Shown piece by piece: positions 15,943 to 63,478 of a stretch of 64,000 nt of DNA. The notes under the pieces were generated by a model. The model did not search any database and was not told the DNA's origin. It was given only the letters and a program-made list of their open reading frames with translations. Position 1 is the stretch's first letter. Each line of letters starts with the position of its first letter. Source of the DNA: Alphaproteobacteria bacterium (lineage in GTDB: Bacteria > Pseudomonadota > Alphaproteobacteria > Micavibrionales > Micavibrionaceae); NCBI GenBank assembly GCA_049652985.1, contig JBASFK010000004.1, positions 251,879 through 315,878 on the forward strand. Reading direction: 5' to 3'. Position numbers and translations under genes: made by a program.

Positions 15943-16791
15943 CTAGTTTTTTACTGAATTATTGAGGGCATCACAAGCCTGCGCCGTGATGTCCGCTTTG
16001 TTGAGCGTATAGAAATGGATATGAGATACGCCGTTTTTGGCGAGGTCTAACGCCTGCGTGATGAGCAGTTCCCCGGCGTATTTGCGCGCATCTTCCGGCT
16101 TGCCTTCGAATTTTGAAAAGCCGTCGGCCAGCCATTGCGGCACGCCTGCCTGGCACCGCCCGGCAAAACGCGTCATGGCCTTGAAATCGTGGACCGGCAG
16201 CAGACCGGGGCAGATGGGAGTCGTGATGCCGGCTTTCCGGCATTTCTCGACAAAGCTGTAGAATTTATCGTTCTCGAAAAAGAACTGCGTAATCGCGCGC
16301 GTGGCCCCGGCGTCGCATTTTTTCTTAAGCGCTTGGATATCATCGTCCAGGGATTTTGAGTCGGGGTGTTTTTCAGGATAGGCGGCCACGGAAATTTCAA
16401 ACTGGTGGCGTTTGCACAGGGCCTCGATGAAATCACTCGTATACTGGAAATAATTTTTATCATGCGCCAGCGGCCATGACAGGTCGGGCGGTAAATCGCC
16501 GCGCAGTGCGATAACATGGCGCGTGCCGTTTTTCCACAGCGCGTCGGTCACAGCAAAAACATCGTCCCGCGTCGTGTTGATGAAGGTCAGGTGCGCCGCT
16601 ACGGGCAGGTTGGTTTTCTTCCGCAGTTCCGCAACAATGCCGAGGGTTTTATCACGCGTCGAGCCGCCTGCGCCGTAGGTCACCGTCATAAAGGCTGGGT
16701 TCAGAGCCGCCAGCGCAGGAATAGCGTCCCAGAACGCCGCTTCGGCGGCCTCGGTTTTCGGCGGAAAAAATTCAAAGCTGTAGGTGGTCAC
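15943..16791 (-). CDS. metF: 5,10-methylenetetrahydrofolate reductase
   Basis: SFEFFPPKT...TYGAGGSTR... GTG start. It lies 16 bp upstream of metE, so probably in one operon. Confidence 0.95.
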   Translation of the reverse strand: MTTYSFEFFPPKTEAAEAAFWDAIPALAALNPAFMTVTYGAGGSTRDKTLGIVAELRKKTNLPVAAHLTFINTTRDDVFAVTDALWKNGTRHVIALRGDLPPDLSWPLAHDKNYFQYTSDFIEALCKRHQFEISVAAYPEKHPDSKSLDDDIQALKKKCDAGATRAITQFFFENDKFYSFVEKCRKAGITTPICPGLLPVHDFKAMTRFAGRCQAGVPQWLADGFSKFEGKPEDARKYAGELLITQALDLAKNGVSHIHFYTLNKADITAQACDALNNSVKN

Positions 16792-16799
16792 AATGTTTT

Positions 16800-16856
16800 C
16801 TCCCTTTTAGCCTTGGTGACGCGGTGCAAGCTGGCCCGGATAAATCAGGATTCAAA
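16800..16856 (-). promoter_or_regulatory. Candidate SAM-II riboswitch in the metF-metE leader
   Basis: The minus strand reads CCUGAUUUAUCCGGGCCAGCUUGCACCGCGUCACCAAGGCUAAAAGGGAG. GAUUU, GCUUG and AAGGCUAAAAGG resemble the SAM-II core. The SD (AAGGGAG) lies in the 3' pseudoknot strand. The context is a methionine operon in an alphaproteobacterium. Confidence 0.5.
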
Positions 16857-16947
16857 TGCCGCGGCTGTATCACACAGCCTTATTTTTATAGGTTAATTCA
16901 GGCGGCGCGGCAATTGCATTTTTAAGGCCCGTATTGTAGAAGTGCTC

Positions 16948-18549
16948 ATGACAAACAAAGCCCCGCAGACAGCTCCCAAAACAACAGCCAACATCCAGCG
17001 CCACGACCGCATCCTGATCCTCGATTTCGGCTCGCAGGTCACACAGCTCATTGCCAGGCGCCTCCGCGAAAACGGGGTTTACTGCGAAATCTGGCCTTTC
17101 AACCAGGCGCCCGAGGAACGGGTAAAAGGCTTCGCGCCGAAAGGCATCATCCTCTCCGGCGGCCCGGCCAGCGTGACGAAATCCGATTCCCCCCGCGCGC
17201 CGGACTACGTATTCAATCTCGGCCTGCCGCTTTTGGGAATTTGCTACGGCCAGCAGACGATGGTCCAGCAGCTCGGCGGCAAGGTCGAAGGCTCCGACCA
17301 TCAGGAATTCGGTCGCGCCTACGTCAAGGTGCAAAAACCCTGCGCGATTTTCGAAGGCATCTGGAGCCCCGGCGCCAGCGAACAGGTCTGGATGAGCCAC
17401 GGCGACCGTGTCACGAAACTCCCCTCCGGGTTCGAGGTTGTCGGAATTTCAGAGGGCGCGCCCTTCGCCGCCGTCGCCGACGACAAGCGCCATTTCTACG
17501 GCGTGCAGTTCCACCCCGAGGTGATGCACACGCCGCACGGCACGCAGCTTCTCAAAAATTTCACGCATTTAGTGTGCGGCTGCAAGGGCGACTGGACCAT
17601 GGCGGCGTTCCGCGAAGAAGCCGTCGCGAAAATCCGCAAGCAGGTCGGCAAGGGCAAAGTGATCTGCGGCCTGTCGGGCGGCGTGGACTCGAGCGTTACC
17701 GCCGTGCTGCTGCACGAGGCGATCGGCGACCAGCTGACATGCATTTATGTCGATACCGGCCTGATGCGCGCGAATGAAAGCAAACAGGTCGTCGACATGT
17801 TCCGCGGCGCTTACAACATTCCCCTCGTCCATGAGGACGCGAGCGAGCGGTTCCTGAACGGCCTCGAGGGCATCTCCGAGCCGGAAATGAAACGCAAACT
17901 CATCGGCGCGATGTTCATCGACGTGTTCGAAAAACTCACCAAAGAAGCCGGGCAGGCGGAATTCCTCGCGCAGGGCACGCTGTACCCGGATGTGATCGAA
18001 AGCGTGTCGTTCACGGGTGGCCCGAGCGTCACGATCAAAAGCCACCACAATGTCGGCGGCCTGCCCGAGACGATGAAACTGAAACTGGTTGAGCCGCTCC
18101 GCGAACTGTTCAAGGACGAAGTGAGGGCGCTGGGCCGCGAGCTTGGCATGCCCGAGGAATTCATCAAGCGCCACCCGTTCCCCGGCCCCGGCCTCGCGAT
18201 CCGCATTCCCGGCGAAATCACGCGTGAGAAGCTCGAAATTTTGCGCAAGGCCGACACGGTCTATCTCGAGGAAATCCGCAACGCCGGTCTGTACGACGCG
18301 ATCTGGCAGGCCTTCGCCGTGCTGCTCCCGGTCAAAACCGTCGGCGTCATGGGCGATGACAGGACGTATGATTTCGTCTGCGCGCTCCGCGCCGTGACCA
18401 GCACCGACGGCATGACGGCGGATTCATACCCGTTCAGCCACGATTTCCTCTCCCGCGTCGCCACGCGCATCATCAACGAAGTGCGCGGCATCAACCGCGT
18501 CGTCTATGACGTGACGTCCAAGCCCCCGGGGACGATTGAGTGGGAATAG
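16948..18549 (+). CDS. guaA: GMP synthase (glutamine-hydrolysing)
   Basis: GATase domain (ILILDFGSQ...GICYG) plus ATP-PPase SGGVDSSV. Ends ...[11 protein letters not shown]. Start at ATG 16948. Confidence 0.97.
18530..18549 (+). repeat. att core copy 1 (the functional guaA terminus, ACG ATT GAG TGG GAA TAG)
   Basis: GGACGATTGAGTGGGAATA recurs at 28113-28131 (18/19 identical). GACGATTGAGTGGGA recurs at 28551-28565 (15/15 identical). Confidence 0.85.
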
Positions 18550-18611
18550 TTATTTTCCAAAAAATAACTAATAACTAGTTGATATTAAACAAAACTAGCA
18601 ATAATCTGTTC

Positions 18612-18632
18612 ACTACAAACTAACTGTAAACT
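18612..18632 (+). promoter_or_regulatory. Candidate arm-type integrase-binding motifs (ACTACAAAC, CTGTAAACT)
   Basis: The same two 9-mers occur adjacently in both distal arms: CTGYAAACTTACTACAAAC at 28054-28072 and 28491-28509. Confidence 0.4.
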
Positions 18633-18672
18633 CTGATATAATTCGGGCAGTTAGCTTTTGGGCCGAGTGAAC

Positions 18673-19983
18673 ATGCAGTCAAAAAAACGGATTATTGTGA
18701 ACAATCAAAGCCTCAGCATTCAAAAACCTGCCGTCAGCCGCAAGAAGCGTATGAAAAAAGACAACTCCCATCGAATTGTTGATGAGGTCGAAATATTGGA
18801 TGGCGAGGTTAAAGTAATCCGTACGACCAAAAGTGGACAATTTTGGTCCATGTCTTGTTGGCTACGTGAAGAAGGCAAGTGCTATCGGCGTTCATTAAGA
18901 ACAAGAAATCTTGACGAAGCTAAGCAGTTAGCCCGCGACCAATATATTCAAATTAAAGGCGATCTTAAATCAGGTAACAGGATTTTTACGAAGACAGCCG
19001 AAGAACTTGTTCAGGATTTTATCAACCATAAAACTGAAGAGGCAAAAGCAGGTCTTATTACTGAAGGACGTGTTCAAACCATCAGTATATCTTTAAATCG
19101 TTGGTTTTTAAAATATGTCGGTCATACAAAAAAACTCGACAAAATTACGCGACATGATTTTAAAGAATATTTTATATGGCGCAGGAAGCATGCTCCTGAT
19201 GTACGAAATTCAACGCTAACCAATGATCGTGCGCTTATCTCCTCGTTATTTAAATACGGCATTTCACATGGCTATTTAAAGTTTGAGCAGGCCCCGATCT
19301 TCCCTAAATTATCGATTAAAAAGGCTGATGTTGAACGTCGTGATGACCTTACTTTGGCAGAATGGCAACAGATGTTTCGGGCATTTCCAAGTTGGATCAA
19401 AAAATCAAAAGATGAAAAAGAGAAAGAACAGCGTCTCTTTATAAAAGATTTCTTGGTAATAGCCGCTAATACAGGCTTAAGGTTTGGCGAACTAAGAAAA
19501 TTAAAATGGAATATGATTAGAACGTATCAAGCAAAGCGCACAGGCCATCATATACACGTAGAAATTTCGGTTCCTCCCGATACAAAGACAGGGCCAAGAA
19601 CAGCAATCGGGCAAAGAGGAGATGTCTTTGACCGTATTAAAAAACTTTCAAAATTTACTAAGCCTAATGATTGGGTTTTCGTGGATAATGAAACTGGAGA
19701 TCAAATACATAAGAAGGTCTATTACAAGCAATGGCCGCTGCTTTTAAAAGAAAGCAAGCTATCGGATAGTAATAAAAATCTGACGTATTATTCCTTAAGA
19801 CACACCTACATCACATTCAGATTAATCGCTGAAACTAATATATTTTTCCTCGCTAAAAACGTAGGAACAAGTGTCCGGATGATCGAAAATCACTATGAAC
19901 ATGTGAAAACAGATGAGATGAGGCGCGAACTTACAAAATCTAAAAAACGTGATGAAGCTACAAAAATTTTGATAGGGGACTAA
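18673..19983 (+). CDS. int: Tyrosine-type site-specific integrase
   Basis: C-terminal catalytic motifs TGLRFGELRKLKW, YSLRHTYITF and MIENHYEHV. It sits next to the att site at guaA. ATG 18673 preferred over TTG 18658. Confidence 0.9.
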   Translation: MQSKKRIIVNNQSLSIQKPAVSRKKRMKKDNSHRIVDEVEILDGEVKVIRTTKSGQFWSMSCWLREEGKCYRRSLRTRNLDEAKQLARDQYIQIKGDLKSGNRIFTKTAEELVQDFINHKTEEAKAGLITEGRVQTISISLNRWFLKYVGHTKKLDKITRHDFKEYFIWRRKHAPDVRNSTLTNDRALISSLFKYGISHGYLKFEQAPIFPKLSIKKADVERRDDLTLAEWQQMFRAFPSWIKKSKDEKEKEQRLFIKDFLVIAANTGLRFGELRKLKWNMIRTYQAKRTGHHIHVEISVPPDTKTGPRTAIGQRGDVFDRIKKLSKFTKPNDWVFVDNETGDQIHKKVYYKQWPLLLKESKLSDSNKNLTYYSLRHTYITFRLIAETNIFFLAKNVGTSVRMIENHYEHVKTDEMRRELTKSKKRDEATKILIGD

Positions 19984-20008
19984 AATTTAGTTTTAGTTAT
20001 AGGATAAG

Positions 20009-21586
20009 ATGACGTTAGAAATAGTCCCACAAAATGCTCGCTTTACACCTATCAATTTATCTAATTTCATTGAGCATTTAAGAAGACATCAGCAAAAATC
20101 TATAATAAGTAGTGGTTCGTACTTATGTTGGGAAGCGTTTAGAAATCCAGAATTTAAATCTAAGTTGTCATCGCAGCTTCAGCTTATAGAATCTTATGCA
20201 CCCAAAATAATACTCCTAGCTTTAGCAACTGCAAATAATCAGAGAAATCTGACTGTAAATAATGAAGAATTCTATAATTTGTGTAGCAGTTTTCTTCATA
20301 TACGCACTCCTATTTCCGATAAACCTTTTTTGGATTTAGAAGCTAAAAAAATTACTGAAGAGTTAAATGCTGTATGCACAAAAAAGGGCAATATTCCTGT
20401 TGAAAGAATTCATGAAGAATTAATAAGAGCTAGCTGTTCGATAATGTTTATATCTCGAGGGGTCACTGCGCAGCATCGTAATTTTAAAATGAGTTTGGAG
20501 GAAATGTTTAGAGATTATCTCATTATTAAGCACATTGATTCTCAAACTTCTAATGAAGCATCTCGAATTTTAAAGAATATATTTGGTATCGATACACTAC
20601 AGATATTTCGCTCAGCTTTTGGTCTGTTTTCTGTAGCTAATGATACTAATCGAAATGGTTCTCTGAATTTCGGAACGTTAACTTGTGATGTTGCTTTAAC
20701 TGACCGTTTGAAAATAGATCTAACAACATGTCTTTCAGTGGCCACAAACACTTCCTATAAAGAAAGCGATTTGCGCGAGAACTGGCTTAATAAGGAAGTT
20801 CTTTCGGAACATGAGCTTTATCAGTCTTATGCTCCCGATCCCTTATCCTATAATCCTATCATTCACAGAGATAGATCAGTATTAGAGAATCAATTCTTAA
20901 TTCCATCGCCTGGCTTATTCTTTCGAGGCTTTCGGCAATCCCTATTCTCCATTCTTTATCAAAATGCTTCGAATAAAGGAGATATGGGAAGACAAATAGG
21001 CAATGCAATAGAAACTCACATTGAAGTAGCCTTAAAAAGCATTTTTTCGAAAGATCGAGTAACAAAAATTCAAAGCGATGAAAGACAAGCAGATTTTTTA
21101 ATTCAGCTCGAAAAAATCGATCTAATAATCGAGATCAAATCAATGATTGGAGGTATTTCAGATAAATTTGTTATGCGACCAGATCACACTGCTAAAATGT
21201 GGAATCGTCTTTATAGTGCATGTACACAATGTGCATCTTCATTAAAAACGGACGGCACAAAAAATAAACCAATCATTCCTATTATTTTAATCGCAGACCA
21301 TATCACAGCGGAACATTTACCCTTTGATCATTATGCATTCCATGCGGGCCTATATAAAGACTCAGGCATCAATGCGATTGAATATATTTCATGGAATTCT
21401 TTAGAGGATATTCTTTCGAAAACATCTATTGCCGAATTTGAAAAGGCATTATTGAAAAAATGGAAGGATCCAGCAAGAGTTACAGTCGGTACTTCAATGG
21501 CTTTAGACTTAAACAGAGATACACCTGCACATGAATATCAATATCTAAAAGATGCAGAAGTAGAAATTTTTATGAGAGAAATATAA
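20009..21586 (+). CDS. Unknown N-terminal domain fused to a C-terminal PD-(D/E)xK-type nuclease motif set (putative)
   Basis: 525 aa. Ordered motifs GNAIETHIEVAL (E335), QADFLI (D362) and LIIEIKS (E375-x-K377). The first ~330 aa have no recognised motif. Confidence 0.5.
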   Translation: MTLEIVPQNARFTPINLSNFIEHLRRHQQKSIISSGSYLCWEAFRNPEFKSKLSSQLQLIESYAPKIILLALATANNQRNLTVNNEEFYNLCSSFLHIRTPISDKPFLDLEAKKITEELNAVCTKKGNIPVERIHEELIRASCSIMFISRGVTAQHRNFKMSLEEMFRDYLIIKHIDSQTSNEASRILKNIFGIDTLQIFRSAFGLFSVANDTNRNGSLNFGTLTCDVALTDRLKIDLTTCLSVATNTSYKESDLRENWLNKEVLSEHELYQSYAPDPLSYNPIIHRDRSVLENQFLIPSPGLFFRGFRQSLFSILYQNASNKGDMGRQIGNAIETHIEVALKSIFSKDRVTKIQSDERQADFLIQLEKIDLIIEIKSMIGGISDKFVMRPDHTAKMWNRLYSACTQCASSLKTDGTKNKPIIPIILIADHITAEHLPFDHYAFHAGLYKDSGINAIEYISWNSLEDILSKTSIAEFEKALLKKWKDPARVTVGTSMALDLNRDTPAHEYQYLKDAEVEIFMREI

Positions 21587-22293
21587 TGTTTAATAAAGCA
21601 GATATTGATGCAGCAGAATTAGATTGGAAAGACGCAGACGAATTTAACGAATCGTTATCAAAGTTAAAAAAAGGCCAAGTTAAGTTCATAAAGGTTGAAG
21701 GTGATCTTGCTCGATCAAAACTCGCTTGGAAAATAGCAACTTATTCTGAGGCTATACGCTATCGATTAATAGAGGTAACGGAGGCATGTATTGATGAATG
21801 GCAAAAAGAACGTTTTGTCGCATGTTTTATCATGGCGAGAGTAATAATAGAAACTGTTGCGGCATTATATGAATTGGAACATCAATTACAAAAACTATTA
21901 GCTAATAAAGATCTGGATGCGATCGACGCAATGATAATGAAGAGAACATTCGGCACAAGACTAGCTGACTTGTTCGGCGGTAAAAAAGCTTATGAAGCTG
22001 TAAGTGTTCTCACTACTATTGATAAATTAGATAAATTTCTTAAAGGGCATGTAAGAGAAGCTTATGATCGTCTCTCTGAATATACGCACACAAATTATAT
22101 GGGTGTTTGTAGTTCGTACGAAAAAATTGATTACAAATACGGAGACGTGACGTATGGTAATCAGAATACTAAGCACAATGTGTTCATGCGACTGCAGGGT
22201 GAGTTTGGTCTTCTAGAGCTGGCTAATATCACATTTGAGAAAATTAAGTCGCATGTTAAGGCAACTGCTGATCTTCAGCATGAACTAGATTAG
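21586..22293 (+). CDS. Hypothetical helical protein with an Rx5H (HEPN-like) motif, translationally coupled to the upstream gene
   Basis: The ATG overlaps the upstream stop (ATAATG). AYDRLSEYTH contains R162-x5-H168. The HEPN assignment is tentative. Confidence 0.35.
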   Translation: MFNKADIDAAELDWKDADEFNESLSKLKKGQVKFIKVEGDLARSKLAWKIATYSEAIRYRLIEVTEACIDEWQKERFVACFIMARVIIETVAALYELEHQLQKLLANKDLDAIDAMIMKRTFGTRLADLFGGKKAYEAVSVLTTIDKLDKFLKGHVREAYDRLSEYTHTNYMGVCSSYEKIDYKYGDVTYGNQNTKHNVFMRLQGEFGLLELANITFEKIKSHVKATADLQHELD

Positions 22294-22493
22294 ATAATCA
22301 AATCTTTCAATTCACAATCTAAAGCATCTGCAATCGAAACTAACGACTTGATTGTGACATTCATTTTTCCATTTTCAATTTCCGAGAGATAGCTTCGATC
22401 AATCTGCGCTAACCCACATAAGTCTTCTTGCGTAAGATTCTGCTTCTTTCGCAGTTTTACGATATTTTTCCCTATGATCTTTAGCTCTTTCAT
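22290..22493 (-). CDS. XRE-family (Cro/CI-type) helix-turn-helix regulator
   Basis: 67 aa. LRKKQNLTQEDLCGLAQIDRSYLSEIENGKMNVTIKSLVSIADAL is a canonical HTH_XRE sequence. Confidence 0.85.
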   Translation of the reverse strand: MKELKIIGKNIVKLRKKQNLTQEDLCGLAQIDRSYLSEIENGKMNVTIKSLVSIADALDCELKDLII

Positions 22494-22500
22494 AGAGAAA

Positions 22501-22549
22501 TTATGTTGTTTTTAACCCACAAAGACCGTAGGTTATAACCAACATAATG
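22501..22549. promoter_or_regulatory. Candidate operator in the divergent XRE / 22561 promoter region
   Basis: Inverted repeat ATTATGTTG (22501-22509) / CAACATAAT (22541-22549) encloses a perfect 10-bp palindrome GGTTATAACC (22532-22541). Confidence 0.35.
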
Positions 22550-22560
22550 AAGGAGTTAGC

Positions 22561-23340
22561 ATGTTCAAAAGAGTAGGGATAGCAACAATAGCTGTGACAT
22601 TGTGCCTTTTGTCTAATCCAATTAAAGCCCAGGATTATCAAAGTGCTTTGGAATTAGTGGAAGGGGATGAATACGCTAGCTATTTCATAGCGCCAACATT
22701 TAAAGACAAAATAAAACAAGCTCTCCAAATATCTGATCAAAGCATATCACCAGAAGCTCTAAGTGTTTTGCAAAGTCTCGATGTTCGTGGCCTTAAGTTG
22801 ATGGCGACATACGAAGAAGCTCTAAGCTTCGCTAAATCCGAAAACAGCGTCTGCCAATCCATTCTAAGCAATTTTCACAGCCTATGGCATGTCATGAACA
22901 TGGATAGGAATGTAAGTGGGAAAACGACACAAGCGGATTCAAAAACAAAAGTGTCACAAAGTGCAATGTATTGTAATGGAAAAGTGACATATTTGTCATT
23001 TACACCATTAGGCCGTTTAAATGATGTGACAATGACATTGGTTTCAGAAGAAAATAATGACGAAATTCTAAAAACATTTGAACAGAAGTTATCTGGTAAA
23101 AAAATAGATACGAAATGCACAAGACGAAATCTTGGTAAATGTGAAGCCGGAATATATTTTTATAAAGACCAATTCTCTAAATTCAATTTACTATTCGAGG
23201 ATAAAGCTACTTTTAAAGATGGGAAATATTTCTATGTTTATGAGATGGAGCTTTCATCTGATTACCTTAAAAAAACAGATAACGATGCTTTAAAACAAAT
23301 CTTGGAATCTAATCAATCTAAACAAAAGACGAAGCTTTAA
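22561..23340 (+). CDS. Secreted hypothetical protein
   Basis: Signal peptide MFKRVGIATIAVTLCLLSNPIKAQD. No family recognised. Confidence 0.6.
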   Translation: MFKRVGIATIAVTLCLLSNPIKAQDYQSALELVEGDEYASYFIAPTFKDKIKQALQISDQSISPEALSVLQSLDVRGLKLMATYEEALSFAKSENSVCQSILSNFHSLWHVMNMDRNVSGKTTQADSKTKVSQSAMYCNGKVTYLSFTPLGRLNDVTMTLVSEENNDEILKTFEQKLSGKKIDTKCTRRNLGKCEAGIYFYKDQFSKFNLLFEDKATFKDGKYFYVYEMELSSDYLKKTDNDALKQILESNQSKQKTKL

Positions 23341-23355
23341 AACGGCCATAAAAAA

Positions 23356-23388
23356 AGCTGCAATAATTAACATTGCAGCTTTTCTCTT
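23356..23388 (+). terminator. Rho-independent terminator
   Basis: Stem AGCTGCAAT (23356-23364) / ATTGCAGCT (23372-23380), 7-nt loop, then TTTCTCTT. Confidence 0.65.
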
Positions 23389-23550
23389 AATTCATATTTC
23401 AGATCACTTATTTTTCATTTTCTGTTTTTGTAACTTTCAATTAAAAATTATTTTTTCAAATTTACATTTCCTATCTCTTATTCTATGTTCCTATTCATCT
23501 TTCTCTTTTCATTAAGCAATAATAAAATATTGCAGAACTCATAACGAATT

Positions 23551-23571
23551 CGGCACATCTTAATTTTTACG
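23551..23571 (+). repeat. Direct repeat copy A (CGGCAC-ATC-TTAATTTTTACG), embedded in a hairpin
   Basis: Matches 24938-24955 (CGGCAC-TTAATTTTTACG). Here the 12-mer forms the loop of the hairpin CACATC (23554-23559) / GATGTG (23571-23576). Confidence 0.55.
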
Positions 23572-23623
23572 ATGTGAGGAACGGTGCTCGGTTACTTGAA
23601 GTTTTCAGCGTAAATTGGCAGCG

Positions 23624-24100
23624 TTACTTGGAACAAAATTCACGGCTAATGATAAAAGCTCGATAATTTTGATCTTTATATTGTTCCTTTAAACAGTAAT
23701 CCAAACGTCCAGTAAAAGGTTGAATATCGATTGAACCACTTTTAACCAGCGTCTCCCATACATCAGGCGCATGCTGTTCGAAGCGTTCGATATGTTCTCG
23801 ATTAACCCTTGTTAATAGATGATAGTGAAGGTTCGACTGGATATGCTCAGGGAACGCGATGAAAAACGTTCGTTCTTCAGGTGGTTTTTTATACCAATTC
23901 GTCCCTAAAATTCTTCGGTCGATATTTGCATGAAATTTTTTAAGTTTGTCGCGGGCAGAATCCAATGTTTCGGGTCTATTAAAAACGAGCGTCATGAAAT
24001 GGGTAAAGTTTTGGCTGTCTAGCCAAACTTTGAATTTGGGGAGTAATTTTGATGGAAATATAGTGGTGGTGGTCATCAACCTATTTATGCATTGAGCCAC
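23624..24100 (-). CDS. Small rolling-circle Rep-like (HUH) protein, possibly YagK/YfjJ / inovirus gpII-like (tentative)
   Basis: 158 aa with three ordered motifs resembling RCR Rep motifs: FMTLVF (motif 1), LHYHLLT (HUH) and LDYCLKE (uxxYuxK). Confidence 0.45.
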   Translation of the reverse strand: MAQCINRLMTTTTIFPSKLLPKFKVWLDSQNFTHFMTLVFNRPETLDSARDKLKKFHANIDRRILGTNWYKKPPEERTFFIAFPEHIQSNLHYHLLTRVNREHIERFEQHAPDVWETLVKSGSIDIQPFTGRLDYCLKEQYKDQNYRAFIISREFCSK

Positions 24101-24133
24101 TTATCGCGTTAAGTTATTGATTGTCCAATAAAA

Positions 24134-24164
24134 AATGGCTTCTATTGTAATAATAGAAGCCATT
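24134..24164 (-). terminator. Hairpin terminator between 24177..24776 and the Rep-like gene
   Basis: 13-bp stem AATGGCTTCTATT (24134-24146) / AATAGAAGCCATT (24152-24164). A T-run follows on the minus strand. Confidence 0.5.
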
Positions 24165-24176
24165 TTATGTTTGTTG

Positions 24177-24776
24177 CTAAACGCTCCGAATCCATGGAAA
24201 CGAGTCGTATTCTTCATATTCTTCAAGTGTCCGTGGATTTTGACGAATAAATTGATTTAGAGACCGCTGCATCTTCTCGTTACGCTGTTCGTCAAAAATT
24301 GCCTCTAAAAGTGGATCGTAGATAGTAAGACGCGCAGGACAATTTTGGACTACATCATTCACTGTAAATTCAGTATTTTTCAATTCACTGATGTCTGTGG
24401 CAATTTTAGCATCGCGTTCCATCAGCTCATGAAGATGAAAGGCAATATACAGCTTCATACTTTTATAAAGCTTTTTGTTGGATTTTTTACACCCATTATT
24501 TGCCAACTGAACAAGTTTAATGGAAGATTTTTTATCATAATCTGAGAATTCTTGACGAGTTACATAGCGACCTGTAGTTACAATTAGCTGGTGCAGGGAC
24601 TGGGTGTAATCTGCTACTTGTTTATCAGAGAGTTTACGGATGGACTTCAGCGCATAATAAATTTCGCTGCCAAAGAAAGTTCTTACCATGCCATCGTCTA
24701 GAGTCTCGGGATTCCACACGTAGTGAATGGAATATTTGCGATTGAAGTAAATAGGTAGATTGGCCTTCATTTTCAT
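24177..24776 (-). CDS. Hypothetical protein
   Basis: 199-aa AT-rich ORF upstream of the Rep-like gene. No family recognised. Confidence 0.55.
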   Translation of the reverse strand: MKMKANLPIYFNRKYSIHYVWNPETLDDGMVRTFFGSEIYYALKSIRKLSDKQVADYTQSLHQLIVTTGRYVTRQEFSDYDKKSSIKLVQLANNGCKKSNKKLYKSMKLYIAFHLHELMERDAKIATDISELKNTEFTVNDVVQNCPARLTIYDPLLEAIFDEQRNEKMQRSLNQFIRQNPRTLEEYEEYDSFPWIRSV

Positions 24777-24937
24777 TTTTTCCTTATTTTAATTAATTTT
24801 TGCAATCGCCTTATGCGTTTGCTTCATGTCCAAATCCAAACTTCCATAACCACATGCAAAATGGTTCTCTGGTATAAAGAGAATTGGTTTGAAGTGGGAA
24901 ATGTGGTGTTGGGGGGACATGAACCTATTTATTCACG

Positions 24938-24955
24938 CGGCACTTAATTTTTACG
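24938..24955 (+). repeat. Direct repeat copy B (CGGCAC-TTAATTTTTACG)
   Basis: Same orientation as 23551-23571. Together the two copies bracket the two minus-strand genes 23624-24776. Confidence 0.55.
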
Positions 24956-24986
24956 TTTTTTTACGTAATAATATGTCGTTCTTTAG

Positions 24987-25018
24987 ACTGATTATGATAC
25001 TTTGTTATCATAATCAGT
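24987..25018. repeat. Perfect 13-6-13 palindromic site (ACTGATTATGATA-CTTTGT-TATCATAATCAGT)
   Basis: 13-bp perfect inverted arms at 24987-24999 and 25006-25018 with a 6-bp spacer. It lies 114 bp upstream of the small tyrosine recombinase gene. Confidence 0.7.
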
Positions 25019-25131
25019 GGTATATAACCCATTGATTTATAATATAATTTTAGCTCATGTGTTGCGTTGACCTTATCCCAATACATTAGGAAATTGCCTG
25101 TACTTAACGTTTTCTAATGAAAGGACAGACA

Positions 25132-25719
25132 ATGGGACTAGGTAAGCAGGCCAAGATCTTATCGAGGCATCAGCAAGCGGCTTTAATTTCGTTTTTAACG
25201 ACCACTAGACACGCCAAACGAAACCAAGTGATTTTCCTGTTATCGATTAGAGCCGGTCTTAGAGCGAAAGAAATCGCGTTTATCACCTGGTCTATGGTTT
25301 CAGATGCCGAAGGCAATATATCCGATGTTATTAATCTTCGAAATTCCGCGTCTAAAGGTAATTCTGGCGGCATAATCTGGATGAACAGCGATTTAAGGCA
25401 GGCTCTAATTGAATACCGGGCTACTCAAAACTTAATGAGTGGTAATGACAGGATCATTAAAACAGAACGCGGTGAAAACACATCAGCCCAAGTTATCGTG
25501 AATATGTTCAAGGGTTGGTACAAGAAACTGGGTTTCGAGGGGTGTTCATCACACAGCGGCCGTCGAACCTTCATTACAAACGCAGCTCGTAAAATATCGA
25601 CGGTCGGTGGTTCGATTCGAGATGTTCAAGTCCTAGCCAGACATTCATCCCTTCAAATGACCCAGAGATATATTGAATGTGATGTCGAAGCACAGAAAAA
25701 AGTGGTTCAGCTAATATAG
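25132..25719 (+). CDS. Small tyrosine recombinase (catalytic domain only)
   Basis: RAGLRAKEI, SSHSGRRTFIT, LARHSS and TQRYIE supply the R..HxxR..H..Y residues. ATG 25132 has an AAGGA RBS; an alternative ATG is at 25117. Confidence 0.85.
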   Translation: MGLGKQAKILSRHQQAALISFLTTTRHAKRNQVIFLLSIRAGLRAKEIAFITWSMVSDAEGNISDVINLRNSASKGNSGGIIWMNSDLRQALIEYRATQNLMSGNDRIIKTERGENTSAQVIVNMFKGWYKKLGFEGCSSHSGRRTFITNAARKISTVGGSIRDVQVLARHSSLQMTQRYIECDVEAQKKVVQLI

Positions 25720-25762
25720 CAAAAAATTCATTATTATTCTGAATTTATGCTATAAATTCGAA

Positions 25763-26404
25763 ATGTCAGAACAACCGAAACTTCTACCATTAATTCAAAA
25801 GAAAATAGATGAAGAAAGACAAGTTCTACTTCAACTCATAACTTCTTGGATCATGCACTTTGCTAGTGGCAAGGGCACTATAAAAACTTTCAGCGGGAAA
25901 ACCTGTTCTTGGTCAGGCACATTGTTCGAGGGGAGTTCACGAGACGTATTTTGGGGCAGATATATTGAACCATTTTTAGAAGATTGTACCGAACGTCTAA
26001 TTGATTTGGTGGTGCAAGAATCTGACAGCAATAAACTCAATCTGAAATTGGAATTATATACCTTATCAAACCATATGCGTGGTTTGTTTGCCCGAATATA
26101 CAATGAAATGGCTGAGGCTGATCAACGGATGTTGGGTATGGGACATCCTAATCAAATAGACAGAAAAGACGTTACTCAGGAAATCATAAGCATGAACCAC
26201 TATTTGGATCAGCACATTGTCATGGCTCTTAATAAACATAAGTCACGCACTTCTTTGAAAACAAAATTTATTGAAAATTTTAAAGAGCAGGCTGTTCAAA
26301 AGCTCGTAGAATATTCGATCGTAGCAATTATTTCTATTTTAGGATGGATATTTGCAAGCGAACATATCGCGGCAATCATCAACTCTCTAAGAAATAACGG
26401 GTGA
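25763..26404 (+). CDS. Hypothetical protein with a C-terminal TM helix
   Basis: 213 aa. Helical N-terminal part and one hydrophobic segment (YSIVAIISILGWIFA). No family recognised. Confidence 0.55.
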   Translation: MSEQPKLLPLIQKKIDEERQVLLQLITSWIMHFASGKGTIKTFSGKTCSWSGTLFEGSSRDVFWGRYIEPFLEDCTERLIDLVVQESDSNKLNLKLELYTLSNHMRGLFARIYNEMAEADQRMLGMGHPNQIDRKDVTQEIISMNHYLDQHIVMALNKHKSRTSLKTKFIENFKEQAVQKLVEYSIVAIISILGWIFASEHIAAIINSLRNNG

Positions 26405-26413
26405 CAGAAGAAA

Positions 26414-27229
26414 ATGAATTCAAAAGTTGATTTTAAAGCTCGCGCAAAGCAGCATCTTGCTGCTGCAAAAGAAGAATTATCGTCAGGAGATGAAAGACGT
26501 TTAAAATATGCGGCTCTTGAAATTCGTATGGCAATGGAAGCCGTAACTTACGAACGTGCTCAGGCATATATCAAGGATATCCCGCCAGAAGTTTATGAAA
26601 CTTGGCAACCTAAAAAACTGATGTTGTTTCTACTTGAGGCCGATCCTTATGCAGACCAATCTTCAACACTTTCAGTAGGAATAGAAAAAGAATATGGAGT
26701 CGAAGCCAAGGAAATGAAAACCCTTGGCACTGAGCATATTTTGTCGTTGGCAGAAATAAAAAAGAATTATGATGCGATTGGTAGCTATCTTCATATGCCA
26801 ACGTATAAACAACTTCAGGAGGCTAAACAAAACCTTTCAAGTCTCAAAGATAGATGTGAAAAAATAATTGAAAAACTAGAGAAAGTTATCAATTCCAAAA
26901 TTCATAACATAAAATTTACAGTTTTTTCCGAAGTACATTGTGTTCGATGTGAGCATCTGATTAAAAAGAATATAGCTCATCTAAAAAAGCTTGATACAAT
27001 CGAAGCCAAATGTTTGGGATGTGGTGCAACTTATTTGGTTGAGAACGCAGACAACGATCAAATTAAATGGAAACCAAAAAAATCTTTATTTAATTGCATT
27101 AACAAAGAATGTAACGAAGAAAATTCAATTTGGAACGATGAGTTAAAGCCTGGCACAATTATTCAATGTAAAGCGTGCAATGCTAATAACGAAATTGCAT
27201 TGTCTGTTGTTTTAAGAAGCACAGTATAA
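26414..27229 (+). CDS. Hypothetical protein: helical N-domain plus two C-terminal zinc-ribbon-like Cys pairs
   Basis: 271 aa. C176xxC179...C200xxC203 and C228x4C233...C252xxC255. N-domain motifs LEIRMAMEAVTYE and NYDAIGSYLH resemble those in ORF 21586..22293. Confidence 0.55.
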   Translation: MNSKVDFKARAKQHLAAAKEELSSGDERRLKYAALEIRMAMEAVTYERAQAYIKDIPPEVYETWQPKKLMLFLLEADPYADQSSTLSVGIEKEYGVEAKEMKTLGTEHILSLAEIKKNYDAIGSYLHMPTYKQLQEAKQNLSSLKDRCEKIIEKLEKVINSKIHNIKFTVFSEVHCVRCEHLIKKNIAHLKKLDTIEAKCLGCGATYLVENADNDQIKWKPKKSLFNCINKECNEENSIWNDELKPGTIIQCKACNANNEIALSVVLRSTV

Positions 27230-27257
27230 AGCCATAAAAATTAGATACCGCGAATAT

Positions 27258-27995
27258 CTAATGCAACATCTTGTATTGAAGATAAGCTCGAAAATCAGGC
27301 ATAGGCTTGTTATTAGCAAAAAATATCAGTCCGATATCAAACGAAAAAATATTTTTATATCTGTTATTGGCTATGTCTGAGTATTCGATTGTCAGTTTTA
27401 AGCTGGGAATAGGGCAGTCCAAATTCTTTGAAAGCACTGCAAAATTTATATAAAAATAATTTGAAACAAGCCAAGTATAAGCTGCAGGTACAGGTATCTT
27501 AAGGCCAGTTTGTTCGATGGAAGCTGGAAGCAGATAATCTTCGCTCCGCTCTAAGCTTGGGTTCAAATTAACTAATGCTTCGGATTTATCGCCATCTTTA
27601 AATTCTAAAAAACTGTCTAATTTTTTTATTGTGACCCTTGTCTCATTTTCTTGATTCAACTGGTTCAATTTTTGAATGAATGTGTCGAAATCAAAATCCC
27701 AAGTTAACTGTATATCTTTGGCAGCTCCATTTCCCAGATTAAATAACGATATTTCTAAATCAGGCGATTTTAGCTCTTCCAGTTCTTCGTTTTTTGAGTC
27801 GTTTAATACCCAATCACAAAAAATAGCGGACTGAAAGTAACCACTGAAAACTTGTTTGATGGGTACAATGTCAGGCTTATAGCTATGCTTCCTTTGCCTG
27901 TGCATTTCGAGCAGTGTTAACAAAGCAGCAATTGCTGCAAAAAAAGTCGCCCAATCAGCAACAAATGACGATAAATTTTCGAATGAAATAGGCAT
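27258..27995 (-). CDS. Hypothetical membrane-anchored protein
   Basis: 245 aa with an N-terminal TM helix (WATFFAAIAALLTLL). Convergent with 26414..27229. No family recognised. Confidence 0.55.
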   Translation of the reverse strand: MPISFENLSSFVADWATFFAAIAALLTLLEMHRQRKHSYKPDIVPIKQVFSGYFQSAIFCDWVLNDSKNEELEELKSPDLEISLFNLGNGAAKDIQLTWDFDFDTFIQKLNQLNQENETRVTIKKLDSFLEFKDGDKSEALVNLNPSLERSEDYLLPASIEQTGLKIPVPAAYTWLVSNYFYINFAVLSKNLDCPIPSLKLTIEYSDIANNRYKNIFSFDIGLIFFANNKPMPDFRAYLQYKMLH

Positions 27996-28053
27996 TTAAA
28001 GATGATACTTTTTATAGGGTAAGCTATCCATTCAAATTTTCTGGCAGGATAAG

Positions 28054-28132
28054 CTGCAAACTTACTACAAACAAAAATATTATGATTATAAATCAAATAA
28101 TTAGACGCATAAGGACTATTGAGTGGGAATAA
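28054..28132 (+). repeat. Island right arm plus att core copy 2 (ACT ATT GAG TGG GAA TAA)
   Basis: The 75-bp arm 28054-28128 is collinear with 28491-28565 (58/75 identical by hand), including a perfect 21-mer AAACTTACTACAAACAAAAAT. It ends in a copy of the guaA terminus. Confidence 0.8.
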
Positions 28133-28565
28133 ACGATGGAAATCAAAATTATTAATATAAAAACAGATGAAATAAAAGATTGGGATAGCTTCCATGCTGT
28201 ATTTCAAAAGGCATTTGGATTTCCTGATTTTTACGGACGTAATATGAATGCATGGATTGATTGTATGTCTTATCTTGATGAATCGGATAATGAGATGACC
28301 AACATAACAGTTAAATCAGGCGGCATAATTATATTGAATATAGAAAACTCTGCGGAATTCAAAAAACGCTGCGCAGAGCAATATGAAGCATTGATAGAAT
28401 GCTCTGCATTTGTAAATTATAGACGCATTGAAGCCGGGGAGACCCCCGTTCTTTCTCTAATTTTTTCTGGACATTATTAAAGCAATCCAACTGTAAACTT
28501 ACTACAAACAAAAATTTTTTGAAGTTAGATCAAATGTTTATAAGTGCAGAGACGATTGAGTGGGA
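28132..28565 (+). mobile_element. Mini-element or remnant between att copies 2 and 3, carrying only a barstar-like gene
   Basis: Bounded by copies of the guaA terminus. It shares its right arm with the large island. No recombinase of its own. Confidence 0.6.
28136..28480 (+). CDS. Barstar-family ribonuclease inhibitor (orphan immunity protein)
   Basis: FHAVFQKAFGFPDFYGRNMNAWIDCMSYL aligns with barstar [28 protein letters not shown]. Size (114 aa) is appropriate. Confidence 0.8.
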   Translation: MEIKIINIKTDEIKDWDSFHAVFQKAFGFPDFYGRNMNAWIDCMSYLDESDNEMTNITVKSGGIIILNIENSAEFKKRCAEQYEALIECSAFVNYRRIEAGETPVLSLIFSGHY

Positions 28566-28569
28566 GTGA
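28491..28569 (+). repeat. Second right arm plus att core copy 3 (ACG ATT GAG TGG GAG TGA)
   Basis: See 28054-28132. GACGATTGAGTGGGA is identical to 18531-18545, and the T-I-E-W-E-stop reading is retained. Confidence 0.8.
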
Positions 28570-28573
28570 TGAA

Positions 28574-29182
28574 ATGCAGAATGTTGATGTGAATCAAATT
28601 GCAATTTCTATTGCAGATAAAATCACATCAGAGCTGGATGTAAGAATTGCCTTAATTGGTGTTTTTGGTGTTGCTGTTGGTGCTTTAATTCCCGGAATTT
28701 TATCTCTTTTTGAGAAAAAAATTGGATACGCTAATGATTACTACAAAAGCATTGTCCAGCGCCGTATTGCTGCCTATGAAGAATTGGAAAATTTAATAAT
28801 CGCTTTGAAAACATCCGTAATCGACACAGATAATAAGCCATATCATCTATTATTCGCTCAAGAGGATGAAGGTAAGGCAGTTTATTTCAGAACTCAAAGT
28901 ATTATGCGCCAATCTCTCTGGCTTAGTAATAAGGCTTTAAGAAAATTAATATCTTTTGGTGACCGCATGTTTAATGCTGACCGGAAAGATATGGTTGCGT
29001 TTGCAAAAGAACATTACAAGGAGATTGCAGATTGGCGCCATGAGATTGAAAAAATTCTTGCCGCTGATATGTTAGAGCTTCACAACGTTAAAAAATTTCT
29101 GAAACAAAAAAATAAGGGCAATTCAAAATATCGTGCTCTTCATATAAAAAGCTCTAAACAAGAGTTAGAAAGTTTAGAATAA
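28574..29182 (+). CDS. Hypothetical membrane-anchored protein (AT-rich, beyond the last att copy)
   Basis: ATG 28574 (MQNVDVNQ...) with one TM helix (IALIGVFGVAVGALIPGILSLF). No family recognised. Confidence 0.5.
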   Translation: MQNVDVNQIAISIADKITSELDVRIALIGVFGVAVGALIPGILSLFEKKIGYANDYYKSIVQRRIAAYEELENLIIALKTSVIDTDNKPYHLLFAQEDEGKAVYFRTQSIMRQSLWLSNKALRKLISFGDRMFNADRKDMVAFAKEHYKEIADWRHEIEKILAADMLELHNVKKFLKQKNKGNSKYRALHIKSSKQELESLE

Positions 29183-29186
29183 TCTC

Positions 29187-29753
29187 ATGTCCCTCAAAGC
29201 AAAATGGCAGGATTGGTTCGATAAGACGGTCGAGGAGTGCCTCGTCCAGAGCGAGGGCGAGCGTATCCGCGCGCAGGGAATCATCCGCGGCAAAAATCCC
29301 GACTTCACCGTCCAGTATAAAATCACGATGAACGATCAATGGGTGTTCCGCGAGGCGGAAATCCAGAGCAAGGACGCGGACGACAAGGGCAAGCAGATTT
29401 TCCTCAGCTCCGACGGCAACGGCAGATGGACCGATTACAAGAACCAGCGCATCGAGGGGCTGGAAGAAGCGCGCGACATCGATTTCATCCTGACGCCCTT
29501 GACCAACACCCTGCCGATCAAGCGCCTTCACCTGACACGCGGCGAGAGTGCCGACATCACCATCGCCAGCATTTCATTTCCCGCGCTTGAAGTGACACCT
29601 GACACGCAGCGCTACACCTGCATCGAGCCTGGCAGGCTGTACCGTTTTGAGTCACTGTCCTCGGATTTCACGCAGGATATCGAGTTCGACGAGGGCGGCC
29701 TCGTTTCCAATTACCCGCAGATGTTCAAGCGAGTGAAATTGGGCAGGGATTAA
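29187..29753 (+). CDS. Putative glycolipid-binding domain (DUF1089-like) protein
   Basis: DIDFILTPLTNTLPIKRLHL...QRYTCIEPGRLYRFES...GGLVSNYPQMFKRV matches my recollection of this family. G+C returns to the host level here. Confidence 0.6.
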   Translation: MSLKAKWQDWFDKTVEECLVQSEGERIRAQGIIRGKNPDFTVQYKITMNDQWVFREAEIQSKDADDKGKQIFLSSDGNGRWTDYKNQRIEGLEEARDIDFILTPLTNTLPIKRLHLTRGESADITIASISFPALEVTPDTQRYTCIEPGRLYRFESLSSDFTQDIEFDEGGLVSNYPQMFKRVKLGRD

Positions 29754-30145
29754 ATTTCCTCGTTCACCACGCCGCCGGCATGAGCCTCGGCAAGGAAAAA
29801 ATCGAAAACATATTGTTCGCCTTCGGCCGGGAATTTTCCCGCCGCGTTTTCGTAGCTTTCAAGCTCGCGCGCTTCATGGCCTTTTCCGAATTCCTCGGCC
29901 TGCGCCTGCGCGAGGATGAGAATGCCTTCCGTGCTCATCAGCGGCACGGGATAGGGCACGCTCCCGCCACGCACACCGTCATTGGCCTGCTCTGAATCGG
30001 CAAGCCAGTGCGCAAACCTGAAATCATCCTCCTCTATCCCGTCGCGGTGCTTTCGCGCGCGCATGCGGGGCAGGCTGACCGGGTTTAATGCCGGGATCAT
30101 ATCGGGCACGGTTAGTCTCCTTATGACAGCTATACGTTCCGCCAA
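29750..30145 (-). CDS. Hypothetical protein
   Basis: 131-aa ORF with host-like composition. No family recognised. Its stop overlaps the convergent neighbour's stop. Confidence 0.4.
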   Translation of the reverse strand: MAERIAVIRRLTVPDMIPALNPVSLPRMRARKHRDGIEEDDFRFAHWLADSEQANDGVRGGSVPYPVPLMSTEGILILAQAQAEEFGKGHEARELESYENAAGKFPAEGEQYVFDFFLAEAHAGGVVNEEI

Positions 30146-30361
30146 CGCCGCACCTACGGGGAAGTTCGGTAATTTATCTAAAATTATTGCCGTATTATCC
30201 TTTTATTATTGTCATAATTCTTAAAATGTTAAGCCGTGTCGATTAGGCTGGAAGGAGTGGTTTTGCACGTAAATCCTGCGTGGAACCATGGTCTCTGCCG
30301 GTCTCGCAAGGCAGTGAAGCGATAAACCGACAGACTGCGCCCTGAAAGGAGGGGCCTGATC

Positions 30362-63403: not shown

Positions 63404-63478
<75 letters not shown>

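Follow-up and report, generated by a model that had tools for sequence, protein, structure and literature searches.

The 3' end of guaA, the gene for GMP synthase, is a documented integration site of genomic islands. The 15-kb integrative element GIsul2 occupies it in Shigella, Acinetobacter, Enterobacter and others; its 19-bp attachment sites have the core GAGTGGGA and form three sites (attL, attLR and attR), tandem CR2-sul2 units recreate perfect cores, and integrase-dependent excision and integration have been demonstrated experimentally both for the whole island and for an integrase-less sub-unit (PMC9376610). Other tyrosine-integrase elements at the guaA 3' end are an IncP island of the alphaproteobacterium Brucella suis and ATE-1 of Trueperella (PMC5704250). 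In the accretion model, an element integrates, decays to an integrase-less unit bounded by attachment sites, and a new element integrates beside it (PMC5704250). Here, we analysed a 64-kb window (the whole stretch of DNA from contig JBASFK010000004.1 of an alphaproteobacterial assembly; all coordinates are positions in it) in which guaA is followed by an AT-rich block with a gene for a 436-aa tyrosine integrase, and compared it with other loci and contigs (L-numbers). We conclude, with a probability of roughly 0.8, that a family of small integrative elements uses the guaA 3' end as its attachment site in the chromosome and that the window holds three stacked layers of them. An earlier reading of the same DNA (the original prediction) had proposed tandem accretion of related elements at this site, with GIsul2 as the precedent. 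The precedent is real and has the same 8-bp core (PMC9376610), and target specificity, the arms of the right attachment sites and the junctions with a sister strain all agree with the proposal.

Attachment sites and junctions at the guaA 3' end

The guaA gene ends in ACG ATT GAG TGG GAA TAG (ACGATTGAGTGGGAATAG at 18532-18549), and two further termini follow in the same orientation, ACTATTGAGTGGGAATAA at 28115-28132 with the stop TAA and ACGATTGAGTGGGAGTGA at 28552-28569 with GAG TGA. The original prediction had named these three copies of a Thr-Ile-Glu-Trp-Glu-stop terminus, collinear 75-bp arms before the two distal copies, two 9-mers beside the integrase gene, and AT-rich DNA opening with a tyrosine integrase. 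Every coordinate of the copies proved exact; the arms (28054-28128 and 28491-28565) are identical at 58/75 positions without gaps, including an exact 21-mer AAACTTACTACAAACAAAAAT; the 9-mers ACTACAAAC and CTGTAAACT lie at 18612-18620 and 18624-18632; and the GC content falls at 18550 from 0.61-0.63 to 0.28-0.41, with a PF00589 protein as the first gene. The predicted extent of 18530-28569 holds for the copies but not for the end of the AT-rich block, which reaches ~29175 (boundary at ~29174-29185), ~600 bp beyond copy 3, and so includes one more gene (orf202).

The significance of the repeats was tested against 100 dinucleotide-preserving shuffles of the window. The last 19 nt of guaA recur at 28113-28131 and 28550-28568, each time behind a conserved arm of ~60 nt, and the 19-mer GGACGATTGAGTGGGAATA has three matches at up to three mismatches, all on the + strand, and none in the 100 shuffles. 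The 8-bp crossover core GAGTGGGA spans the Glu-Trp-Glu codons of the terminus, and all 80 species-representative guaA loci of our reference set (GuaA 70-80% identical) end in Thr-Ile-Glu-Trp-Glu-stop. The guaA gene of E. coli has GAGTGGGA at its end as well. Copies 2 and 3 could also be explained by a local duplication within one island, or by a chance or coding-constrained similarity to the guaA terminus, and an 11-mer with one mismatch, weak evidence when taken alone, does reach three matches in 6/100 shuffles. However, both the 19-mer and a 19-mer of the arms (CTGTAAACTTACTACAAAC, present in only two places in the window, the two arms) have no match in the shuffles, both copies lie outside the best-supported coding regions, related elements terminate in exactly one arm plus core, and homology with the sister strain breaks exactly at copy 3. 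Furthermore, the arm-arm identity of 77% is similar to that between arms of different genomes (75-87%), which argues against a recent duplication, as originally predicted. We therefore regard duplication or chance as extremely improbable.

The arm of ~75 nt before the core is the only non-coding part kept between elements with unrelated cargo (75-87% identity), and because of this, copies 2 and 3 are supported as genuine right attachment sites (attR). Searches with an nhmmer arm profile gave E values from 1e-16 to 1e-21 across the element arms (E=2.5e-18 for copy 2 and E=2.9e-21 for copy 3); the copy 2 arm is 75-81% identical to the arms of L083, L087 and L090, and the copy 3 arm is 87% identical to that of L083. 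The upstream arm opens with two CTRYAAAC repeats 11 nt apart, the second of which ends 45 nt before ATTGAGTGGGA; the repeats read CTGCAAAC-tta-CTACAAAC (11 nt apart) in the copy 2 arm and CTGTAAAC-tta-CTACAAAC in the copy 3 arm. On the integrase side, the motif YTACAAAC is found at +64/+65 from the guaA stop in the window and L083-L094 and at +51 in L001, with a second copy ~11 nt further on (+75) in L083-L089 and in most close family members; at this position after guaA, it was present in 0/80 species-representative loci. In all family members, paired repeats of 8-9 nt, 11 nt apart, lie at constant distances from the core on either side. With arm sites flanking the core on both sides, the layout appears to be that of a lambda-type attachment site, in which the integrase would bind the arm repeats.

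The junctions were mapped against a sister strain, GCA_021733565.1 (contigs L001 and L131). Its 533-aa GuaA protein is identical to that of the window, but guaA ends in GAGTAA there and is followed by another AT-rich element, the integrase of which is 32% identical to the window's. On the left, the window and L001 are 98.7% identical up to 18551, with GAGTGGGA|ATAG in the window and GAGTGGGA|GTAA in L001. On the right, the sister-strain element ends on L131 with its own arm (GAGTTACAAAGTAGTTACAAAC...), then GCT ATA GAG TGG GAG TGA; from 28555 onwards, L131 and the window share 99.93% identity across 1423 nt, a stretch that takes in orf202, the glycolipid-binding gene and DNA past it, and the L131 arm before 28555 is unrelated to the window arm. 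Because the identity between the strains starts exactly at the GAGTGGGA of copy 3, this copy is a true recombination junction that was used independently by two different elements, with strand exchange confined to GAGTGGGA. Since the strains diverge right after GAGTGGGA on the left and rejoin at the GAGTGGGA of copy 3, the guaA stop and the wobble base of the last Glu codon (18546-18549) are supplied by the element, and both breakpoints agree with the predicted rebuilding of the guaA terminus on insertion. The ancestral order was probably guaA(...GAG TGA)-orf202-native DNA. Copy 1 joins guaA to the P' side of the large element, copy 2 joins the arm of the large element to the P' side of a unit with a barstar-family gene, and copy 3 joins the arm of this barstar unit to the old guaA terminus with orf202. 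The window offers three stacked layers, a junction mapped to 8 bp from two natural strains and an element-supplied stop codon.

In the mechanism that we propose, the integrase would exchange strands inside the 8-bp core GAGTGGGA. The element site would consist, in order, of the upstream arm, the core, the replacement wobble base and stop, the downstream arm and the integrase gene; integration would keep guaA intact with the element stop and leave a copy of arm plus core where the element ends distally. First, orf202 would have been fused to the guaA stop, and the barstar unit and the integrase element would have come later, giving the successive guaA termini TGA (with orf202), TAA (with the barstar unit) and TAG (now). 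The circle junction of the 9.6-kb integrase element would read ...AGACGCATAAGGACTATT-GAGTGGGA-ATAGTTATTTTCCAAAAAATAAC and that of a 437-bp barstar circle ...AAGTGCAGAGACGATT-GAGTGGGA-ATAAACGATGGAAATC, and a composite circle would join arm 3-GAGTGGGA to ATAGTTATTTTCC. Restored guaA sites would read guaA...GAGTGGGA-ATAAACGATGG and guaA...GAGTGGGA-GTGATGAAATGCAG, and a cassette-free junction would read guaA...GAGTGGGA-GTGATGAAATG.

Stepwise integration at this locus and the arrival of a ready-made tandem are indistinguishable in these data. A composite of integrase element and barstar unit may have been assembled in another genome, excised via copies 1 and 3 and inserted once (cis-mobilisation); there are published cases of an integrase-less unit being transferred together with a conjugative element (PMC5704250 and its references 80-83). 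The two arms share a repeat type, so one integrase could use either, and the sister strain has neither layer, so separate arrivals are not required. We found no specific counter-data. Such a history alters only the place of accretion and not the nature of the structure, and an arm identity of 77% would still need two distinct parent elements. Overall, a composite arrival seems rather unlikely.

Several points weigh against the accretion of mobile elements at this site. Neither an excised circle nor a restored empty site was observed, and junction reads were not seen either. A same-species empty site was sought by exact look-up of four proteins (GuaA, glycolipid-binding protein, orf202 and barstar), which returned only the window contig and the sister strain, the latter being occupied by another element. 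An excisionase was not recognised in Pfam, PADLOC and PHROGs scans of the island proteins. In addition, arm repeats are missing from the guaA-proximal side of the barstar unit, so that its own mobility is uncertain, the distal attachment site of orf202 is unrecognisable (a candidate decayed core at 29168-29182 is not above chance), and the case for integrase binding to the arm repeats is one of position and conservation.

An inverted repeat (TTATTTTCC/AAAAAATAA) lies directly after the guaA stop (18549-18577) and none follows copies 2 and 3; comparable palindromes are present at the equivalent spot in L083 and L090. Binding of a protein or service as a substitute guaA terminator are possible roles of this repeat. 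Promoter and terminator scans gave no signal exceeding shuffle expectation. A known RNA or tRNA target was considered and rejected: no Rfam family was found in 16000-31000, and the sole tRNA of the window is at 63404.

The integrase and the content of the three layers

The integrase has a PF00589 score of 36.7 bits (cut-off 27.1), and R270, R376, H377 and Y408 are invariant in 32 integrase homologues. Its AlphaFold2 (AF2) model has a predicted local distance difference test (pLDDT) value of 84; by Foldseek, Tn1549 Int and full-length lambda Int rank highest among the PDB structures (E=4e-9), and the protein aligns with full-length lambda Int 1z1b over 400-412 columns. Residues 35-99 of the model form four beta strands plus a helix (pLDDT 80-95) ahead of the core-binding and catalytic domains. 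PF00589 is the sole Pfam match, with none to a Pfam arm-binding domain; from the model, the N-terminal domain is predicted to be arm-binding-like.

An identity of at least 30% is reached by ~50 homologues of this integrase, of which the named ones are annotated as coming from Alphaproteobacteria, Rhodospirillales or Proteobacteria metagenome-assembled genomes (MAGs); an identical protein is already on record beside a guaA fragment, and the sequencing sample SRR28011564 has the locus in identical form. In 5/5 relatives with examined surroundings (83, 63, 56, 44 and 32% identical; the first four by look-up of the genomic surroundings, the last by another route), the gene starts 113-152 nt past the guaA stop, and a homologue was found at 0/80 species-representative guaA loci. 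The proposed targeting of the guaA 3' end is borne out by these relatives, and the empty-site comparison indicates that the site was not ancestrally occupied. Searching 72,556 plasmids with tblastn gave just five matches, all alphaproteobacterial, at 25-27% identity. The family, found only in uncultured Alphaproteobacteria, appears to be undescribed, with the GIsul2 integrase as the guaA-targeting one compared by sequence. In L093/L094, the integrase P0029 (44% identical) has the +65 repeat, with no second core within 10 kb and a host-like downstream GC content of 0.60; it may be a stranded integrase with its right end lost.

Alternatively, the AT-rich block might be ancestral and the repeats relics without mobile-element activity; the flanking gene order is the same in relatives, and each close relative examined has AT-rich DNA after guaA. 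However, the content differs under the same flanks (window, L083-L086, L087-L089 and L001/L131), strains with the same integrase differ in cargo (L087/L088 vs L089; L083 vs L085 and L086), the GC content is ~20 points under that of the host, and the integrase is missing from all 80 species representatives. An ancestral block can thus hardly account for the locus.

Elements of the family are AT-rich and, among the complete ones here, 1.6-10 kb long; the closest GuaA matches are from Rhodospirillales and Micavibrio MAGs. Layer 1 is an intact 9.6-kb integrase-carrying element (18546-28120), and the features of the locus are given in Table 1.

Table 1. Positions of guaA, the attachment sites and the genes of the three layers in the window
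Feature	Position	Strand	Basis or remark
guaA (GMP synthase), target gene	16948..18549	+	Pfam GATase and GMP_synt_C; open reading frame (ORF) start 16942/16948
Copy 1, left attachment site (attL) of the integrase element	18530..18548	+	19-mer repeat family; GAGTGGGA at 18538-18545
Arm-type repeats, integrase side (P' arm)	18612..18632	+	ACTACAAAC-taa-CTGTAAACT, 11-12 nt apart, first 64 nt after guaA stop
Tyrosine integrase, 436 aa, lambda type	18673..19983	+	PF00589; PHROG integrase
Cargo and backbone of the 9.6-kb element	20009..27995	.	ORFs; Pfam, PADLOC, PHROGs; GC 0.28-0.40 vs flanks 0.55-0.63
orf525			first in gene order
orf235			
Helix-turn-helix (HTH) regulator	22290..22493	-	
orf259			
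Rep-like gene	23624..24100	-	
orf199		-	
Second tyrosine recombinase (int2)	25117..25719	+	
orf213	25763..26404		
orf271			
orf245		-	last in gene order
Copy 2, right attachment site (attR) of the integrase element	28054..28131	+	arm, core GAGTGGGA at 28121-28128, then ATAA
Barstar-family gene, sole gene of layer 2	28136..28480	+	PF01337 E=5e-15, full length
Copy 3, attR of the barstar unit	28491..28568	+	arm, core GAGTGGGA at 28558-28565, then GTGA
orf202, layer 3, AT-rich single gene	28574..29182	+	GC 0.35; ATG 4 nt after copy 3 stop; 99.93% with L131
Native chromosome start	29175	+	blastn homology to L083-L089 resumes here in all; GC back to 0.53-0.59
Glycolipid-binding-family gene	29187..29753	+	PF06475; 12 nt after homology resumes

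The int2 gene, the HTH region and the Rep-like gene are common to the window and L083 or L090, whereas the other cargo genes are not, and the genes downstream of int2 differ among L083/L084, L090-92 and the window. The int2 protein (195-200 aa) has the catalytic domain alone (PF00589 E=2e-16) and is 90% identical in L083, 68% in L090 and 31-34% in the marine contigs L100 and L103. Its gene belongs to the conserved backbone of these elements, with dimer resolution or cargo exchange as possible roles. The Rep-like protein (158 aa, 45% identical in L083) has a weak match to REP_ORF2-G2P (PF23343, E=1e-3, below cut-off), a hint of possible replication after excision.

The integrase is the only gene of L089, a minimal element of 1.6 kb, and L087/L088 have the same integrase and two genes more. 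Four contigs with an identical integrase (P0002; L083-L086) carry three internal gene sets; L083, L085 and L086 are mutual deletion variants, and L085 and L086 are without the short recombinase and an 875-aa AAA ATPase. Cargo therefore turns over quickly inside one element type. A homologue of orf213 (66%) was also observed in L008 (11597-12229), 21 nt after the guaA stop and with no integrase, arm or second core; therefore, one gene can be island cargo here and a guaA-adjacent single gene there.

As for the class of the element, PADLOC detected only weak PtuB and LmuB fragments and the HTH control protein as defence cargo. The Pfam, PADLOC and PHROGs scans gave no relaxase, coupling-protein or secretion-system match, so the element does not classify as an integrative and conjugative element (ICE) or an integrative and mobilizable element (IME). 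A prophage or phage satellite was rejected: the PHROGs matches are the two recombinases and one family of unknown function, and the attR pattern had no IMG/VR match.

Layer 2 is a 437-bp integrase-less unit between copies 2 and 3 with one arm. It is bracketed by direct cores (28113-28131 and 28550-28568) and has no integrase or transfer genes, as expected of the bounds of a cis-mobilizable element (CIME). Layer 3, orf202, is probably the oldest, present before the two strains diverged. In every related lineage, its position is taken by a different AT-rich single gene: L083-86 have one for 240 aa, L087-89 one for 171 aa and L090 one for a PIN_12 protein. A decayed site at the right end of orf202 was sought and rejected: the nhmmer arm profile was empty near 29100-29180, and a hand alignment of 12-15 nt was not above chance; past a gene at the orf202 position, a decayed arm was found only in L083 (20435-20459, E=9.8, weak). 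In the native flank, a gene at 30362-31234 (+) resembling FeeM/GNAT-type N-acyl amino acid synthases is 92% conserved in related MAGs.

Core-bounded units at other guaA ends

Scanning metagenomes for the arm-plus-core pattern yielded 33 contigs. Many of them have 2-4 tandem cores after guaA, among them L113 and L115 and the independent contigs L097, L101, L120, L108, L119 and L122. L101 has four cores, and L120 has an integrase element followed by a 934-bp unit. On L097, where an integrase was not found, a 667-bp unit encodes a GNAT protein and a 1.6-kb unit an FkbM methyltransferase; this contig is 98.9% identical to L096, from which it differs by a single core-bounded GNAT unit, measured as 682 bp in this comparison. 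The unit of L115 has one gene in 906 bp, and the GuaA C-terminus of this contig (124 aa) is identical to that of the window. The arm-repeat types GTTACAAAC, GTTAGAAAG and GTTACAT are mixed within a single array. Furthermore, in 4/80 species representatives, a second core is found 1.2-2 kb past guaA, with units lacking an integrase; two of the four are the cultured strains Siccirubricoccus sp. G192 and Phaeospirillum tilakii KCTC 15012, which are possible experimental hosts. Core-bounded units without an integrase, mostly of a single gene, are thus common behind guaA, both in metagenomes and in two or more cultured species, and a second GAGTGGGARTRR shortly after guaA is a simple annotation marker of them.

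The closest barstar homologue (75%) also lies just after guaA, in a genome with a 74%-identical GuaA. A fossil core ATTGAGTAGAAGTTAGCAATGG precedes its ATG at the same spacing as in the window, and a fossil arm follows its stop. In L134 (7753-7982), ~230 bp of GC-rich DNA with the palindromes GTCATCCCTGCGAAAGCAGGGATCC and CCCCCGACTTGATCGGGGG lie between the live guaA stop and the fossil core of a barstar unit; these hairpins may be insertions like repetitive extragenic palindromic (REP) sequences.

Instead of being a decay product, the barstar unit may be a purpose-built integrase-less cassette (a circle of core, gene and arm) that was inserted in trans at the guaA stop by integrases of the family. 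Its gene would be transcribed and translationally coupled from guaA, in an integron-like capture with the guaA terminus as both insertion site and expression signal. The full-length barstar gene starts 3 nt after the copy 2 stop and orf202 starts 4 nt after the copy 3 stop; junctions of 0-5 nt are found independently in L087-89, L090, L101, L108, L118 and L131; and the core offers GGGAG/GGGA 3-7 nt before the ATGs, which may resemble a ribosome-binding site. By our own reading of the list, 15/16 small-unit genes are co-oriented with guaA. The barstar homologue with its fossil core at identical spacing, and the pair L096/L097, point the same way. On the other hand, the next gene is 19-160 nt distant from the core in about two thirds of the attR-like cases, the gene of the L115 unit is on the opposite strand, and some integrase-less units keep both arms and resemble plain deletion derivatives (L119 vs L100). 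No circular cassette was seen, the co-orientation may merely mirror the parent elements, and the examples are not all independent. Tight junctions, the conserved barstar junction and L096/L097 thus favour cassettes, and looser junctions and the two-armed L119 favour decay; we regard the cassette origin of the barstar unit as the less likely alternative.

By extension, the guaA terminus might work in many Alphaproteobacteria and marine bacteria as a platform for the integron-like capture and expression of genes, a reading that is possible but has the odds against it. Several integrase sub-families with different arm-repeat types would then insert integrase-less cassettes in trans, always at GAGTGGGA, and the barstar unit and orf202 would be two of these cassettes. 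If true, each new gene would be placed 0-5 nt after the guaA stop, with GGGAG of the core as its ribosome-binding site, and would be expressed from a housekeeping gene. Under either origin of the small units, we retain accretion at the guaA attachment site as the preferred reading; the units may still be mobile, and the order of arrival given above is the probable one.

Other units were noted at guaA ends. Low-GC one-gene units (1.2-1.4 kb) ending in a second GAGTGGGARTRR were observed in L015 (12842-12900), L066 (12906) and L069 (12816), two of them from cultured strains, and the L015 unit still has an arm-like stretch. L049 (11525-13626; Rhizobium sp. Q54 MAG) has a longer repeat of the guaA 3' end (~70 nt) at a distance of 2 kb from guaA. 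In the high-GC unit between them, tblastn detected no homologue of the integrase, and this unit appears to belong to a different family of guaA-end units. As candidates for an excised circle, L100 and L127 show the order arm-core-integrase, but no contig has a terminal overlap, and the arm repeats before and after the L100 core differ in type, so L100 was read as a tandem.

Comparison with described elements

GIsul2 and the window element are alike in inserting at the guaA 3' end via GAGTGGGA with the integrase gene adjoining guaA, but the integrase of GIsul2 (pAB3 copy) has no detectable relation to that of the window (BLASTP E=0.23). The GIsul2 integrase is P4-like and has Arm-DNA-bind_3, Phage_int_M and Phage_integrase domains, whereas that of the window has PF00589 only. 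None of the GIsul2 backbone (alpA, repA/repC, trbJKL, ars, toxin-antitoxin, resG and ISCR2-sul2) was found in the window by Pfam, PADLOC and PHROGs; the window element has uncultured Alphaproteobacteria as hosts and, unlike GIsul2, no resistance genes. Membership of the GIsul2 family was ruled out by integrase dissimilarity, domain make-up and the missing backbone. Because the two integrases have no detectable sequence similarity, convergence on a gene end that does not vary is the best reading of the shared GAGTGGGA core, and unrelated integrases on one core point to the Thr-Ile-Glu-Trp-Glu-stop end of GMP synthase as the target of this convergence. The Brucella suis IncP island and ATE-1, compared by description, carry replication, toxin-antitoxin or antitoxin modules (PMC5704250), which were not seen in the window.

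The CIMEs of Streptococcus thermophilus (ICESt1/ICESt3, fda 3' end) follow the same accretion model, and the barstar unit corresponds to their definition. They differ in target gene, hosts and integrase family, and the intact window element yielded no gene for conjugation or mobilisation; moreover, the window-type small units are mostly single-gene and often start 5 nt or less from the core, which is not a described CIME property. Tandem islands at ssrA in Dehalococcoides reportedly also lie where an essential single-copy gene ends, with a repeat of its 3' end closing each island, but are said to differ in their RNA-gene target, another integrase type, larger size and catabolic cargo.

With integron cassette arrays, the likeness is a functional analogy only, in that short, mostly single-gene integrase-less units, each with a recombination site at its end, lie in one orientation at a fixed insertion point, which could provide expression too. 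The window integrase is of the lambda/Tn1549 type, not an IntI (among the PDB matches, the IntI structure 2a3v comes 25th), the unit ends appear to be double-stranded sites of arm plus core instead of attC, and the insertion point is the end of a housekeeping gene. The structure of the locus is that of a known process, genomic-island accretion with integrase-less units, and the integrase family that drives it here appears to be undescribed.

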